Program-made: the position numbers and the translations under genes | NCBI GenBank assembly: GCA_944324465.1 | Contig: CALUWI010000001.1 | Span: forward strand, 33,023 to 97,022 | Direction: 5' to 3' | Length of the DNA stretch: 64,000 bases | Origin: an uncultured Mucispirillum sp. | Lineage (GTDB): Bacteria; Chrysiogenota; Deferribacteres; Deferribacterales; Mucispirillaceae | Part shown: positions 3,785 to 53,308 of the stretch, one piece after another | Numbering within the stretch: the stretch's first letter is position 1 | Layout of the letters: each line of letters begins with the position of its first letter | The notes under the pieces: generated by a model | What the model was told of the DNA's origin: nothing | The model's database searches: none | The model's input: the letters and a program-made list of their open reading frames with translations, nothing else

Positions 3785-5815
3785 CTATTTACTAATTTTA
3801 ATCATATAAGATTTGAATATATCTTCATTCATAAAATCATCATCTATTTTACCATTTTCACATTTCCATATTTGCCAGTTATCTCCATTTTGAATTGGCA
3901 GATAAAAAATATAACCCGTCATCTTGCTGGCATAAACATATGCTTTTTTTATTTTTTCTATCTTTTCCTTATAAAATTCATCATCTAAATCATAAGATGA
4001 ACTTTTATTTACACTTTTTACTTCAAATATATGCACTTTATCTTTTTTATCTTTAAAAATAAAATCTGGATAGCTTGTATGTTTTCTAGTATGGTAATAA
4101 TCATATTTAATGTTTGATTTATCTATAAAATTCTTACCAAATAAATATACTCTTTCCGCCTCTATTTCAATAAACTTACAACATTTTTTTCTTAATCCAT
4201 TTAATATCTTGAAAAATGATTTTTCTGCATCGCTGTCAAAACTATATTCTTCATCATCTGTATACCATATCCAATCATCTACTGTTACAGTATGTCCATT
4301 ATCGTAAAAATAACTATCATAATCTTGTCTAAAATTATATTCCTCTTTTATCATGCCATATTTTTCATAATCTTCTACTGTTGTCATTATTTTTTCTTTT
4401 ATTTTATTTAGATTAAGCATAAATTCAAACCATTTATTGTAATCTGTAACATATTCATAATATTTATCTTTTACTTTATCATTAATTTTATTAAGTTCTT
4501 TATACATATTAAAAATTGATTTATTAGAATATGCTGTTTTATCTGCAACTATACAATCCAATATATCTATATTACTTAAAGGGACTTCTTCTAGTTCAAT
4601 AATTTTGAAGGGTCTAAATTCTTTTACTATTTCATTACCTGCAATAAAATTTATCCCTCGTAATTTTGTTATTACTTTTTTCTTAATATTTTCCTGCGGT
4701 TTAATACCATAAACATAGGCTTTGCTAAAAATATTTTGTTCAATTGGGTTTAATTTTTCAAAATAAGTAAGACATGGATTTCTTCTAACTCTGCCTATTA
4801 CCTGTTCATCTAACTGTTTTGATTTAGAATCTCTTACTTGGTAAAGCATACATGCTCTTGGCATATCAAAACCTTCTGTTATTACCATTTTAAATATGAC
4901 TACATCTATAAAAGAATTATTTTCTTTTACATAATTATACCATTGATTTTTATTTTTCATTTTTTGTAGATTACTGTTAGTCTTATAACCGCTTGTCTTA
5001 TCTATATCAGAAAAATATACCCAGTTTAAACTTTTACTCTCAACAATTTTTGTTATTATATTAATCTCTTCTTCTGCCTTATTCTTATTTGATATTTGTA
5101 TTATAAATGCTGGATTTATTCCGCTATTATGATAAATTTCTCTTATTTCCTTGAATTTATTTAAAGCATTATTCAAATCTTCTTTTAATTCAGTATCAAA
5201 ATTTATATATTCAACATCTTTTATTAAATTAACACTTACTGCCTCATCTTCTGTGATTACAACATCATATTCATCATTTACAGGTGTAGCAGAAAAATTA
5301 ATAGTTTGATAAAAATAATCTGATATTTTTTTAAGGTTATTTGTAGCAATATGACATTCATCTCTTACTAAAATTATTTTCTTTTTCTTTTTTAAACAAT
5401 TATCTAAAAAATTTTGTAAAACTCTTTCTTTATATACCCTGCTGTTTTCTGTATACTGGCTTGTTGGAAGAACAAATATATTACATGTATCATCAATATA
5501 TAAGCTGTATTCTGTATTTTTAGTATTTTCATTACCACTGCTGATATAATAAGGTCTTAATTTTGTATATTTATTTAATGCTAAATCATCAAATTTATTA
5601 TAACTTTGTCTGGCAAGTTTTCCTTTTGATAAGATAGATACTACAAAAATAATATTTTCATCATCTGCTATCATCTTATTCATAAGATTAGCCATTATAT
5701 GAGTTTTACCACTTCCAGTAGGTGCTTTTACAGTAATTGATTTATTACCTTTTTTTGCAAGATTAAAAATAGATCTAACTGTCCTTTCCTGCAATTCTAT
5801 TATTTCACTTTTCAT
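3785..5815 (-). CDS. res: Type III restriction enzyme Res subunit (SF2 helicase + PD-(D/E)xK nuclease)
   Basis: APTGSGKT Walker A, RDECH, FSATP, ITEGFD, QVIGRVRR, C-terminal YPDFIFKD...IFEVKS; overlaps the mod stop. Confidence 0.88.
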   Translation of the reverse strand: MKSEIIELQERTVRSIFNLAKKGNKSITVKAPTGSGKTHIMANLMNKMIADDENIIFVVSILSKGKLARQSYNKFDDLALNKYTKLRPYYISSGNENTKNTEYSLYIDDTCNIFVLPTSQYTENSRVYKERVLQNFLDNCLKKKKKIILVRDECHIATNNLKKISDYFYQTINFSATPVNDEYDVVITEDEAVSVNLIKDVEYINFDTELKEDLNNALNKFKEIREIYHNSGINPAFIIQISNKNKAEEEINIITKIVESKSLNWVYFSDIDKTSGYKTNSNLQKMKNKNQWYNYVKENNSFIDVVIFKMVITEGFDMPRACMLYQVRDSKSKQLDEQVIGRVRRNPCLTYFEKLNPIEQNIFSKAYVYGIKPQENIKKKVITKLRGINFIAGNEIVKEFRPFKIIELEEVPLSNIDILDCIVADKTAYSNKSIFNMYKELNKINDKVKDKYYEYVTDYNKWFEFMLNLNKIKEKIMTTVEDYEKYGMIKEEYNFRQDYDSYFYDNGHTVTVDDWIWYTDDEEYSFDSDAEKSFFKILNGLRKKCCKFIEIEAERVYLFGKNFIDKSNIKYDYYHTRKHTSYPDFIFKDKKDKVHIFEVKSVNKSSSYDLDDEFYKEKIEKIKKAYVYASKMTGYIFYLPIQNGDNWQIWKCENGKIDDDFMNEDIFKSYMIKISK

Positions 5816-7443
5816 TATCAGCTACCCAGCCATTTCTTTTTTTATATTCTTCATCGCTCTCTACTTTCCTGCAGGTTATTTCAAACTCACTGCATATCCA
5901 GTCTATTTTATCATGGATATTGCCTTTAAAATCTTTATTATATAATTTTTCATCTATTTCATTAAATATATGTTGGCTGTCTGTTGATTTTTGTTTTATT
6001 TCAGTTACTTCTAAACCATCTCCATAAGGTTTATTTTTTTCTAACCATTTAAAATTATCTGTGCCGTCATAACAAGAGCCAGTCATTACTCTTTTTAATC
6101 TTTTAGAAGTAACATCATAAGCTATACCATTTGGGTTAATTTCTGTTTTTTCATTATTTGTAACTAAAATAAACTGCCTTTTACCACCATCTTCTCTATT
6201 TAGCTCCATTACTGCATGCCCTGTGGTGCCACTTCCTGCAAAAAAATCTAGGATAATATCTTGTTCGCTAGTATCTATACTTGGGGAAGTAGAAATTTTT
6301 AGTAAATGTTTAATAAGTTCAATAGGTTTAGGTGTGTCAAAAACTTTTTGATTATTAAATATAGATAAAATTTCTTTTGTAGAATCTGTGGATGTTCCGT
6401 ATTCTGTAAAAAGTGTTCGTGTTTTTATTATTTTTTCTTTTCCTTTCATTTCATCAAAATATATTACTTCATAAGGTGTTAATCTGCTTTTAGAATCTTC
6501 TTGCCAAAATATATGTTCATCATCTAATGTTTGAGGTTTTTTTCTCCAACAACCATCTGCCCCATTTGGTGCTACAGGAAAAAAGTCATTTCCATTTGGA
6601 TCTTTTATAGGATAATAAAGTGTAGGTCTATCGGTTCTCAAAGAGTGATTTCCCCATTTTTCAAGCTTTAAAATTTTTGCTTTTTTACCGTTTATAATTC
6701 TATTAAAATCGTTTTCACGATACTCTTCCGTAATATCGTTTATATCCCAATCTAATTTTTGATAGCATAATATATACTCGTGTTCTTTTGCAAAGTATTC
6801 TGAATCTTGACTGCCACCTTTTTTCTTTTGCCATATCAAACTAGCCACAAAATTCCTTTCCCCAAACACTTCATCAAATAAGCATTTTACATATGCCTGA
6901 TTTCTGTCATCTATACTGCAAAATATTACTCCGTCATCTCTTAACAATTGTTTTGCAAGCATAAGTCGTGGATAAAGCATAGATAAAAGGTTATCTCTTG
7001 TTATAGCATTATCATAATTAGTTTTTGCAAATTCGCCTAAGTGGTCCTTTCCATAAGGTGGGTCAATGTAGATTACTTTGATTTTTCTTTTATAGGATAT
7101 TAATAAATTTAATAGAGCTGGATAGTTATCACCAATAATCAGCTTATGAGTTTCCCCCCCCCCTATCAGCACAATTAAAACTTAAATCACTATTATATTT
7201 TAAATAATTTATAGTTTTACCGTCATTTTTTTCAAGCCTGACATCAAAATGAAAACCTGTCCTTTTATATGTTGTGCCTAATATTGATAGTTTTAAAACA
7301 TCATCTTTTGTATCAGCATTATTAATTAATTTAATTAAAAATTCTGCATTTTCTGTTTCAAGAATACCATCGTTTTTTCGTTTTTCTATTTCGTTTATTA
7401 TTTCTTCTTTAAACTCATTCAATGTTAAATCGTTATTATTCAT
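5805..7443 (-). pseudogene. mod: Type III Mod adenine methyltransferase split by a frameshift at a G10 tract (phase-variable, OFF state as assembled)
   Basis: ORFs 7144..7443 (ends DRGGGNS*) and 5805..7172 (GGGETHKLIIGDN, IYIDPPY, DFFAGSGTT) join in frame if the tract is G9 or G12; G9 gives 545 aa. Confidence 0.9.
7154..7163 (-). repeat. G10 homopolymer (C10 on + strand) inside mod
   Basis: tttCCCCCCCCCCtatcagc at 7151-7170. Confidence 0.95.
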
Positions 7444-48478: not shown

Positions 48479-51651
<3,173 letters not shown>

Positions 51652-51855
51652 ATATCATTATCCTTATATTTTATTTAGTTTAGTGGCTTAATATAACATA
51701 ATTTATGTTTTATTCAAGGATATATTTATATTGCAGCCCTTTATACATAATCTCTGCACAAATATAAAAATAATTTATTACAATGCCATATATTGTCGCA
51801 AGTATATTTTATATTTATTTTTACAATAATAATTTTATAAAATGTAAAATAATAC

Positions 51856-51882
51856 TTGACAAATCCCCCCCCCATGTATAAT
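51856..51882 (+). promoter_or_regulatory. Consensus sigma70 promoter with C9 tract in a 15-bp spacer (candidate phase-variable promoter)
   Basis: TTGACA 51856-61, aatCCCCCCCCCatg, TATAAT 51877-82; AAGGAG RBS at 51901. Confidence 0.85.
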
Positions 51883-51912
51883 TGAGCACATTTTATAAAA
51901 AAGGAGAATTTT

Positions 51913-53202
51913 ATGAAAAAACTGAAAAACTTAACTTTTGCATGTCTGCTTATTTTAGGCTTAGCTGCATGTGCTGATGATAACAAATCATCAAATAATC
52001 CGCCTGTAATTGATAATACAGAAACTGTTACATTAGAATTTACTGGTAAAATCGGTGAAGGAACAGAAAACACTATTACTTTTACTAACCCACATGCTGT
52101 GGAAGCAGACCTTGAAGTATACATTAATCCTACAGACAGCACTATTAAAATTGATACTGTAAGTTCAACATGTGATAATATAGTAAATAATTATAACAGT
52201 TACAATGTTACTTCTAAATTAGCAGCTGGAGAGTCATGCGAAGTTAAATATACTTATACTCCAACTAACTTAGATACTGCATTATTAAAATTAAATGTAG
52301 ATTATTTCAAATCTATGGCAGCAATATGCCCAACACCAGATACTGTTCCTTCCTACGAGCAAGTTATGACAAGAAATAAATATGTAGACATGTATATTTA
52401 TAACTATGCAGTAGACAGTAACGGTAATAAATCACCAGAACACATTAATATTGAAATACCTGTTGAATGGTCTGTAACAGGCACTAATGCTGCTTCTTTA
52501 AATGCAGTTTCTCATACTTCCTCTTTTGACCTGTCTGCAAAACAAGGCAAATATTATATTAGTGGTATTTATGGTGCTTCAATACAGTCTAATAATGACA
52601 ACTGCACTATCACAGGTAATATGCTTAATGTAAAAGGCAGTAACAGCTGCTCTTTAACTGTTACAGCAACAGCAAACTATGTTTCACCTATTAAAATCAG
52701 TCCTGCAAATTTAGCAAATCCTTACTACAATATAAATGTAGAAATTAATGAAAAATATACTTACAGCTTATTAGAGCCTAATAGTATGTATGTTCCAACA
52801 TTTAGACCTGAATATATTGCAACTAATTTAAGTGGAGATACTTATATTTATGCAGGTGTACTGAGCAATAATGAAAAAATCACAAGTTATGAAATAACTG
52901 GCACAAATAAAGATAAATTTAAAGTTGTACCAACAAAACATAATGGCTGCACAGTAGTAACAAATAAAGAAATATCAATACCAGAAGGACAGGATAACTG
53001 CTTTTACACTGTTGAATTAACAGATATTTCTAAAACTGCAGAATATACTGCCGTATTAAATACAACATTAAGCGATGGTGCAACTCAAGTATATAATATT
53101 AATGGCACAGTAAGCCTGTTTACAATAGAAGAGGCTTTATCAAATTACTGTAAACAATCTTCTCAAAATAAAGAAGATAATAAACAATATAAATTATTCT
53201 AA
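51913..53202 (+). CDS. Surface lipoprotein with Ig-like beta-sandwich domains
   Basis: Lipobox LAAC; Thr/Asn/Ser-rich; LAAGESCEVKYTYTPT resembles ASH/choice-of-anchor D Ig-like domains. Confidence 0.7.
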   Translation: MKKLKNLTFACLLILGLAACADDNKSSNNPPVIDNTETVTLEFTGKIGEGTENTITFTNPHAVEADLEVYINPTDSTIKIDTVSSTCDNIVNNYNSYNVTSKLAAGESCEVKYTYTPTNLDTALLKLNVDYFKSMAAICPTPDTVPSYEQVMTRNKYVDMYIYNYAVDSNGNKSPEHINIEIPVEWSVTGTNAASLNAVSHTSSFDLSAKQGKYYISGIYGASIQSNNDNCTITGNMLNVKGSNSCSLTVTATANYVSPIKISPANLANPYYNINVEINEKYTYSLLEPNSMYVPTFRPEYIATNLSGDTYIYAGVLSNNEKITSYEITGTNKDKFKVVPTKHNGCTVVTNKEISIPEGQDNCFYTVELTDISKTAEYTAVLNTTLSDGATQVYNINGTVSLFTIEEALSNYCKQSSQNKEDNKQYKLF

Positions 53203-53229
53203 TAATTTATATAATCACCTAAACTTATG

Positions 53230-53256
53230 CCCCTGTAATCTATTACAGGGGTTTTT
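53230..53256 (+). terminator. Rho-independent terminator after the lipoprotein gene
   Basis: cccctgtaat / attacagggg followed by ttttt. Confidence 0.8.
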
Positions 53257-53308
53257 AGTTTTCTATTTTTAAAGTAACTTAAATATTTTATAGATTTTTT
53301 ATTTGTTA

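Follow-up and report, generated by a model that had tools for sequence, protein, structure and literature searches.

The lipoprotein locus and its promoter

The window analysed here, a stretch of 64,000 nucleotides (nt) from an uncultured Mucispirillum, carries at 51913–53202 a gene for a lipoprotein of 429 amino acids, preceded by a promoter whose −35 and −10 hexamers enclose a run of nine cytosines (C9; other lengths are written C8, C10 and so on). An earlier note, made from the sequence alone, had interpreted this run as the variable spacer of a phase-variable promoter. Our analysis supports that interpretation through a conserved footprint around the tract, the recurrence of the same module at other genes, polymorphism in tract length and a preference of the genome for spacers of 16–17 base pairs (bp). 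We consider it probable that C9 is a slipped-strand-mutable spacer element of a sigma-70-type promoter, and that this promoter is the sole driver of a monocistronic lipoprotein gene. The features of the locus are as follows.

51826–51855, + strand: A/T-rich stretch 5' of the −35 box, predicted as a possible UP-like element, conserved in the closer orthologues
51856–51861, + strand: −35 hexamer TTGACA (direct reading of the window sequence; alignment)
51862–51876, + strand: −35/−10 spacer, 15 bp
51865–51873, + strand: poly-C tract, C9, the presumed slipped-strand-mutable element in the spacer (5' flank AAT, 3' flank ATG)
51877–51882, + strand: −10 hexamer TATAAT (direct reading; alignment)
51889–51890, + strand: predicted transcription start, about 7 nt 3' of the −10 box, placed from promoter geometry
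51901–51906, + strand: ribosome-binding site AAGGAG (sequence and alignment)
51913–53202, + strand: lipoprotein open reading frame (ORF), 429 amino acids, ATG at 51913
53229–53262, + strand: intrinsic-terminator-like hairpin (53229–53252) followed by a T run

Both hexamers are perfect consensus sequences, and direct reading bore out every detail that had been claimed for the promoter: the TTGACA and TATAAT boxes, the 15-bp spacer with its nine C's, and the 17-bp spacer to which C11 would lead. The C run had also been called unusual for this DNA, and it is; the window contains five overlapping matches (two tracts) to a run of at least eight C or G against 0.10 expected, and none of 100 shuffles reached five. 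A consensus promoter scan missed the promoter because it accepts spacers of 16–18 bp only, and returned a weaker 9/12 match at 51755–51784 within the 261-bp intergenic region 5' of the gene. The A/T-rich stretch upstream of the −35 box shares TTTATAAAATGTAAAATAATAC with most orthologues in the alignment. An extended −10 element was considered at this promoter and rejected, the TG directly abutting TATAAT with the spacer base absent; the orthologues have GTG, AAG, GT, GC or ACG just before the −10 box and hence also have no extended −10. The upstream gene, for a U32 peptidase, is divergent and the downstream gene, for an aminotransferase, is convergent, so that the promoter serves the lipoprotein gene alone. 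Metatranscriptome contigs from two runs match 51500–51780 exactly and then switch to unrelated sequence; they derive from another strain, whose arrangement beside the U32 peptidase gene differs, which makes the lipoprotein locus a strain-variable site.

The protein begins with a signal peptide and lipobox (MKKLKNLTFACLLILGLAAC), the lipobox being LAAC, which matches the pattern [LVI][ASTVI][GAS]C, with Cys20 encoded at 51970–51972. Residues M1, K2, K3, C11, G16, A18, A19 and C20 are invariant among 38 homologues. Beyond the signal peptide lie a short low-complexity tether and Ig-like beta-sandwich domains in tandem, which contain conserved Cys pairs. An AlphaFold model built with the 38 homologues is all-beta after the disordered tether, with a predicted local distance difference test score (pLDDT) of 81.7 and a predicted template-modelling score (pTM) of 0.72, and Foldseek matched it with probability 1.0 to tandem Ig-like proteins of the ASH/HYDIN/CFAP65, DUF11 and choice-of-anchor D types, with template-modelling (TM) scores of only some 0.2, which reflects a different arrangement of the domains. 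Together the lipobox, the model and the fold matches agree with the earlier description of the product as an Ig-like lipoprotein. A Pfam search gave nothing above cut-off, the best scores being 15.8 bits for Cep192_D4 (cut-off 35.5) and 19.1 for Methuselah_N (cut-off 21.5), and a search of NCBIfam gave no match. In all, 159 homologues were found, and the few with a source name are from Mucispirillum; judged by these matches, the lipoprotein appears to be an orphan family restricted to Mucispirillum-like genomes.

Conservation of the promoter and variation in tract length

In an alignment of ten orthologous or paralogous promoters, the invariant footprint consists of CTTGACAA, the C run, TATAA, TTTT, (G)GAG and ATG, and the remaining intergenic DNA diverges. 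This footprint is retained down to 47% protein identity. Within the ribosome-binding site GGAG is nearly invariant, with G132-A133-G134 invariant, and the distance from the −10 box to the ATG is conserved in orthologues at 30–31 nt. These observations bear on the notion that the TTGACA/TATAAT pair is unused and that the gene is driven from another promoter in the intergenic region, for which the 9/12 match at 51755–51784 would be a candidate. We regard this as very improbable, given that only the tract promoter is kept across orthologues while the DNA upstream of it diverges, that its distance to the ATG is constant, and that about 100 unrelated genes have the same module in front of them at an equal distance. 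We infer that transcription of the lipoprotein gene starts at the tract promoter.

Tract lengths were taken from contig or assembly consensus sequences (all 30 matching sequencing runs exist as contigs), and were as follows at the lipoprotein promoter and its relatives.

Window strain: C9 in two assemblies, an independent ENA assembly and a Logan contig of the probable source run
Strain of 94% identity: C9
Strain of 89% identity: C8
Orthologue P0054: C10, giving a 16-bp spacer
P0070, a tandem paralogue sampled twice with the same protein: C9 and C10
P0030 (seven samples): C9 in all
P0057 (ten samples): C9 in all
P0050 (identical protein of 432 amino acids, ten assemblies): C9 in eight, C8 in one, C11 in one

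The look-up of contigs encoding a given protein merges similar places, and three of nine look-ups therefore gave only one or two loci. Contigs of a second strain show no indel at the tract. The orthologous loci L019 and L149 have C8 and C10 respectively, with flanks unchanged. The P0050 promoters are the most direct comparison, since pairwise alignment identifies the tract as their sole difference across approximately 1.9 kb, and the C11 allele among them has a 17-bp spacer. The earlier note would have abandoned its proposal had the tract been invariant across reads and strains; between assemblies, with C8, C9 or C11 at P0050, it is not.

Homopolymers are error-prone, and the consensus of a metagenome-assembled genome (MAG) masks minority lengths, which raises the question of whether these lengths are artefacts of sequencing or assembly. 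We find this extremely improbable: C9 recurs in independent assemblies produced by different assemblers (ENA scaffolds and Logan contigs), and a closed, single-contig genome of the genus contains tracts of C8–C11 at the same kind of site. Its nine module promoters comprise one C8, four C9, three C10 and one C11. This spread is wider than that of the MAG consensus sequences, as would be expected of a clone drawn from a heterogeneous population, the isolate origin of this genome being a guess.

A recurrent promoter module and the state of the nine-C tract

The promoter is not unique to this locus. The arrangement cTTGACA, 1–4 nt, C8–11, 2–5 nt and TAnnAT stands before five lipoprotein genes in the source genome; at the four others it reads cTTGACA, 2–3 nt, C8–9, (a)TGn and a TAnnAT box. 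The pattern TTGACA-N1-9-C8 is found in 11 of 12 other genomes of the genus at 4–12 distinct loci each, the exception being a genome only 57% complete, and also in one sister genus; it was not found in the three other genera of the family that were searched, and the reversed control pattern gave almost no matches. We retrieved 97 loci from 13 genomes of the family and parsed them for tract, flanks and −10 box. Their properties are as follows.

Tract length: C9 at 79 loci, C8 at 9, C10 at 8, C11 at 1
Spacer length, measured to the best −10 box: 15 bp at 64 loci, or about 70%, 14 bp at 10, 16 bp at 10, 17 bp at 1, 19 bp at 4
Lengths of the 5' and 3' flanks: 2+4 at 51 loci, 3+3 at 15, 4+2 at 6
Extended −10 (TGn): 57 of 97 loci

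The two flanks compensate for one another, and therefore the part of the spacer outside the tract is held at 6 nt, a value almost always observed. A further C lies directly 5' of TTGACA at 82 of the 97 loci. At least 48 of the genes downstream encode a strict lipobox (approximately 56 when judged by eye), and the remainder mostly encode signal-peptide or small membrane proteins. It had been suggested that the same architecture might precede paralogous lipoproteins. The architecture does recur, at five loci here and at the 97 from the 13 genomes, but the genes are not paralogues; paralogy among the tract-promoter genes of the source genome was rejected, as they share no Pfam family, one encoding an RCC1-repeat lipoprotein and the others having no Pfam match.

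Several further observations concern the module and its products. Many of the lipoproteins downstream of such tracts are acidic or Ser-rich immediately after the lipobox Cys (CADD, CADS, CSDS, CAEE; window 51970–52000 and other N-termini), a feature resembling the export signal that sends lipoproteins of Bacteroidota to the cell surface. One variant promoter (L146, at G000:C7:82051-82097) has TTGACA, 10 nt and a G9 tract abutting TATGAT, so that its spacer measures 19 bp; the gene behind it (MADKIKPEDNVSNMQNPN...) does not encode a lipoprotein. In L090, the orthologous promoter of another species, the tract is C9 and the spacer 15 bp, as is usual for the module. In some species a tandem paralogue lies directly 3' of the lipoprotein gene (L006/L014 at G017:C36, L147, L148), and its promoter contains five extra T's, giving a spacer of 19 bp at C9 and 20 bp at C10, above the 17-bp optimum.

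The lengths C9, C10 and C11 correspond to spacers of 15, 16 and 17 bp, and so cross the optimal spacing of the genome as estimated from sequence statistics. That estimate comes from TTGACA promoters lacking a tract, sought upstream of 1,564 crude gene calls in the source genome with at most one mismatch allowed in the −10 box. These cluster at 16, 17 and 18 bp (11, 9 and 7 pairs, against 2–6 at other spacings), and the few with an extended −10 cluster at 16–17 bp. The RNA polymerase thus appears canonical, so that 15 bp should be suboptimal. On these statistics, C9 at 15 bp is plausibly the low state and C10–C11 the strong or on state, the longer tracts being expected to be strong because the genome optimum is 16–17 bp, as at the porA promoter of Neisseria meningitidis.

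The mechanism that we propose is that gain or loss of a C at replication would alter the distance between the −35 and −10 boxes: C9, with 15 bp, is predicted to be weak or off, and C10 (16 bp) and C11 (17 bp) are predicted to be on. Any population would then hold cells differing in their level of this envelope lipoprotein, and slippage would occur at a high rate within a culture. The lipoprotein promoter would be one copy of a genus-wide module found at 4–12 envelope-protein genes per Mucispirillum genome, mostly lipoproteins, and this module would itself belong to a larger set of approximately 35 poly-G/C contingency tracts in the source genome.

Several observations weigh against this proposal. 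The RNA-library contigs that reach the locus end at 51780 and belong to another strain. Both assemblies of the window strain have C9, at the level of contigs. More broadly, C9 is found in 25 of 27 assemblies over three same-protein orthologue sets and at 81% of module loci, a dominance which could mean that a fixed length has been selected rather than left to switch freely. The 15-bp spacer at C9 is the state that flank compensation maintains at most loci. The tracts that lie within coding sequences of the same genome are likewise mostly ON at nine, and by analogy a C9 promoter might be the working state. Finally, intact genes for mismatch repair are present in the source genome, MutS_I in a frame of 859 amino acids and MutL_C in one of 631.

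Some of these points would be accommodated if the polarity were reversed or graded differently, C9 with its 15-bp spacer being the normal working state from which slippage to C8, C10 or C11 shifts expression; this would invoke the extended −10 TGn present in most family members, or properties of this particular RNA polymerase. A 15-bp spacer is reached through compensating flanks at 62 of 75 C9 loci and a 17-bp spacer at no C9 locus, TGn precedes the −10 box at the 57 loci listed above, the coding tracts are mostly in frame at nine, and nearly all in-vivo assemblies have C9 as their consensus. We nevertheless think it unlikely, for the tract-free TTGACA promoters cluster at 16–17 bp with 15 bp at background, the lipoprotein promoter and its orthologues are without an extended −10, and the porA promoter with a 15-bp spacer is reportedly inactive, a detail ascribed to van der Ende in 1995. 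Our preferred reading is that the default state of the module would be off or low, ON variants being rare, rather than that 15 bp works in this context.

A different account of the tract is that it is primarily a fixed cis-element, a factor-binding site or structural box that co-regulates an envelope regulon, its length differences being incidental. The strand bias of the tracts would fit such an element: the promoter-spacer tracts have C on the non-template strand at approximately 97 loci against G at 2 (the G-tract module is nearly absent, with 2 loci in 21 genomes), and this is opposite to the coding tracts of the source genome, where 25 of the 26 clear cases have their G's on the sense strand. 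The fixed geometry, the dominance of C9 and the presence of mismatch repair would fit it also. As an explanation that replaces slippage we judge it improbable, because the tract is the only polymorphism between otherwise identical 1.9-kb sequences, with values of 8, 9 and 11, because tracts of equal length act as frameshift switches in coding genes of the same genome, and because no candidate factor was identified. A fixed element and slippage are not mutually exclusive.

An extension of the default-off reading to the whole genus is possible, although we hold it only tentatively. Under it, 'C9 + 6 nt' would be a default-off lottery in which 4–12 unrelated envelope proteins per genome are silent in most cells, each being independently switched on by the gain of one or two C's, to yield a combinatorial envelope under pressure from immunoglobulin A or phage. 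If this were true, the polarity with C on the non-template strand would suggest a constraint particular to one strand, or else a trans factor, unknown from the Neisseria and Treponema systems.

G/C tracts of the source genome, comparable systems and implications

The source genome is a Mucispirillum MAG of 2.417 Mb in 31 contigs, with 31.7% GC. The sequencing runs that contain DNA of the lipoprotein locus are chicken-gut metagenomes, and the sources of related loci are chicken-gut MAGs of uncultured Mucispirillum and Candidatus Mucispirillum faecigallinarum. The counts of G/C runs in the source genome are as follows.

Length 5: 395
Length 6: 7
Length 7: 0
Length 8: 2
Length 9: 24
Length 10: 8
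Length 11: 1

The distribution is bimodal, with 35 tracts of 8–11 separated from the shorter runs by a gap at 7, and a gap of this kind is the signature of selected hypermutable tracts and of a contingency-locus genome. Every genome of the genus that was searched is rich in runs of at least nine C or G, as is one sister genus; in most of the order's other families such runs are rare. Mismatch repair has not been lost in the manner of Campylobacter, an explanation that we rejected on finding both MutS and MutL intact.

The coding tracts of the source genome lie in genes for two mod-like DNA methylases, a type I hsdS, a glycosyltransferase cluster and molybdoenzymes, and further in one gene of the GntR-aminotransferase type and one NnrS-like gene. 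At the assembled length the reading frame is kept in some of these genes and shifted in others, the in-frame (ON) length being most often 9. One of them lies in the window:

7154–7163, − strand: G10 contingency tract, splitting a mod-like methylase gene into ORFs 7144–7443 and 5805–7172

The tract had been put forward as a second contingency locus in the window, and G10, on the gene strand, does indeed split a DNA-methylase gene. At G10 this gene (5805–7443, − strand; Pfam N6_N4_Mtase) consists of ORFs of 99 and 455 amino acids, and G9 would restore a single open frame of 559 codons. A second methylase gene (G000:C19:38089-39954) and the hsdS gene (G000:C14:43692-44879) also have G9 tracts; with two tract-bearing methylases and an hsdS gene, phase-variable DNA methylation is therefore likely in the source genome.

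Seven poly-G/C tracts occur within 14 kb in a glycan-synthesis cluster (G000:C9:111600-125700) that includes RgpF, GT2, MBOAT, GT2-like and GT9 heptosyltransferase genes and resembles the phase-variable lipooligosaccharide (LOS) or capsule loci of Campylobacter. At least five large molybdopterin oxidoreductases with a twin-arginine translocation (Tat) signal have a G9–G10 tract just past a lipobox-like motif, '...YGCSKDSGSEIIY-GGG...' (G000:C10:84665-88168, C15:45696-48830, C23:1527-5099, C25:4476-7814, the C1:110032 region and C1:17561-20428), some of the genes being in frame and others out of frame. Respiratory or redox enzymes under phase variation would be an unusual class of product for contingency loci. 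Coding and promoter-spacer tracts have, as noted, opposite strand polarity.

The mechanism itself is known, being a homopolymer switch in a promoter spacer of the porA type; the Mucispirillum locus differs in its lineage, in its scale and uniformity (approximately 100 loci), in polarity and in mismatch repair. The porA gene of N. meningitidis has a poly-G tract between the −35 and −10 boxes, and shortening of its 17-bp spacer abolishes transcription, as described in PMC7864442. The two share a G/C homopolymer in the −35/−10 spacer of a sigma-70 promoter before an envelope-protein gene, with one-base slippage around a 17-bp optimum, and at porA the 15-bp spacer is the lowest state. Unlike porA, the Mucispirillum tract is poly-C on the non-template strand, its product is a lipoprotein rather than a porin, and the organism is a gut commensal or pathobiont of the Deferribacterota. 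The module is, moreover, repeated at 4–12 unrelated genes per genome with a fixed 6 nt of non-tract spacer. The opc gene of N. meningitidis has a promoter poly-C tract (Sarkari et al. 1994) that, in the account of PMC7864442, overlaps the −35 region and may act via a regulator. It resembles the present case in having a poly-C tract in the promoter, and shows graded expression of an outer-membrane protein; it differs in that the Mucispirillum promoter has a perfect TTGACA upstream of the tract. Treponema pallidum, according to the same account (PMC7864442), has poly-G promoter tracts at tprE/G/J, tprF/I, tp0126 and tprL. There too several envelope-protein genes per genome have a homopolymer in or near the promoter, where it modulates transcription, though without the uniform spacer position of the Mucispirillum module.

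Two further systems resemble the present one in their organisation. The Mucispirillum module is a set of lipoprotein genes each with its own homopolymer-spacer promoter, as are the vlp lipoprotein genes of Mycoplasma hyorhinis, whose promoter spacers contain poly-A, and which are switched on and off independently and combinatorially as paralogues in one cluster. Unlike vlp, the Mucispirillum genes are unrelated (one, for example, encoding an RCC1-repeat lipoprotein) and dispersed, and their tracts are poly-C. Campylobacter jejuni, also of low GC content, has approximately 30 G/C tracts of 8–11 with a mode of 9, mostly intragenic and with G on the sense strand, which lie mostly in glycosyltransferase, methylase and surface genes, and it is not known to have MutS/MutL-type repair. 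Mucispirillum differs in having MutS and MutL and in its large class of promoter-spacer tracts. Retention of mismatch repair sets the source genome apart from Campylobacter and Helicobacter and is shared with Neisseria and Haemophilus.

Mucispirillum dwells in the gut mucus of rodents, birds and humans; it is a strong target of host immunity and has been linked both to colitis and to protection against Salmonella. In full-text literature searches, no paper was found to connect Mucispirillum to phase variation or to homopolymeric tracts. The module offers a clean natural series, with fixed boxes and a variable number of C's, from which the rules of spacer length might be read in a phylum with very little work on transcription so far. 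The approximately 35 tracts per genome include the lipoprotein promoter class, two DNA methylases, LOS-type glycosyltransferases and several Tat-exported molybdoenzymes. If these switch stochastically, clonal populations would be antigenically and metabolically heterogeneous, the consensus of a MAG would hide the expressed state, and gnotobiotic experiments with 'one strain' would actually be using mixtures.

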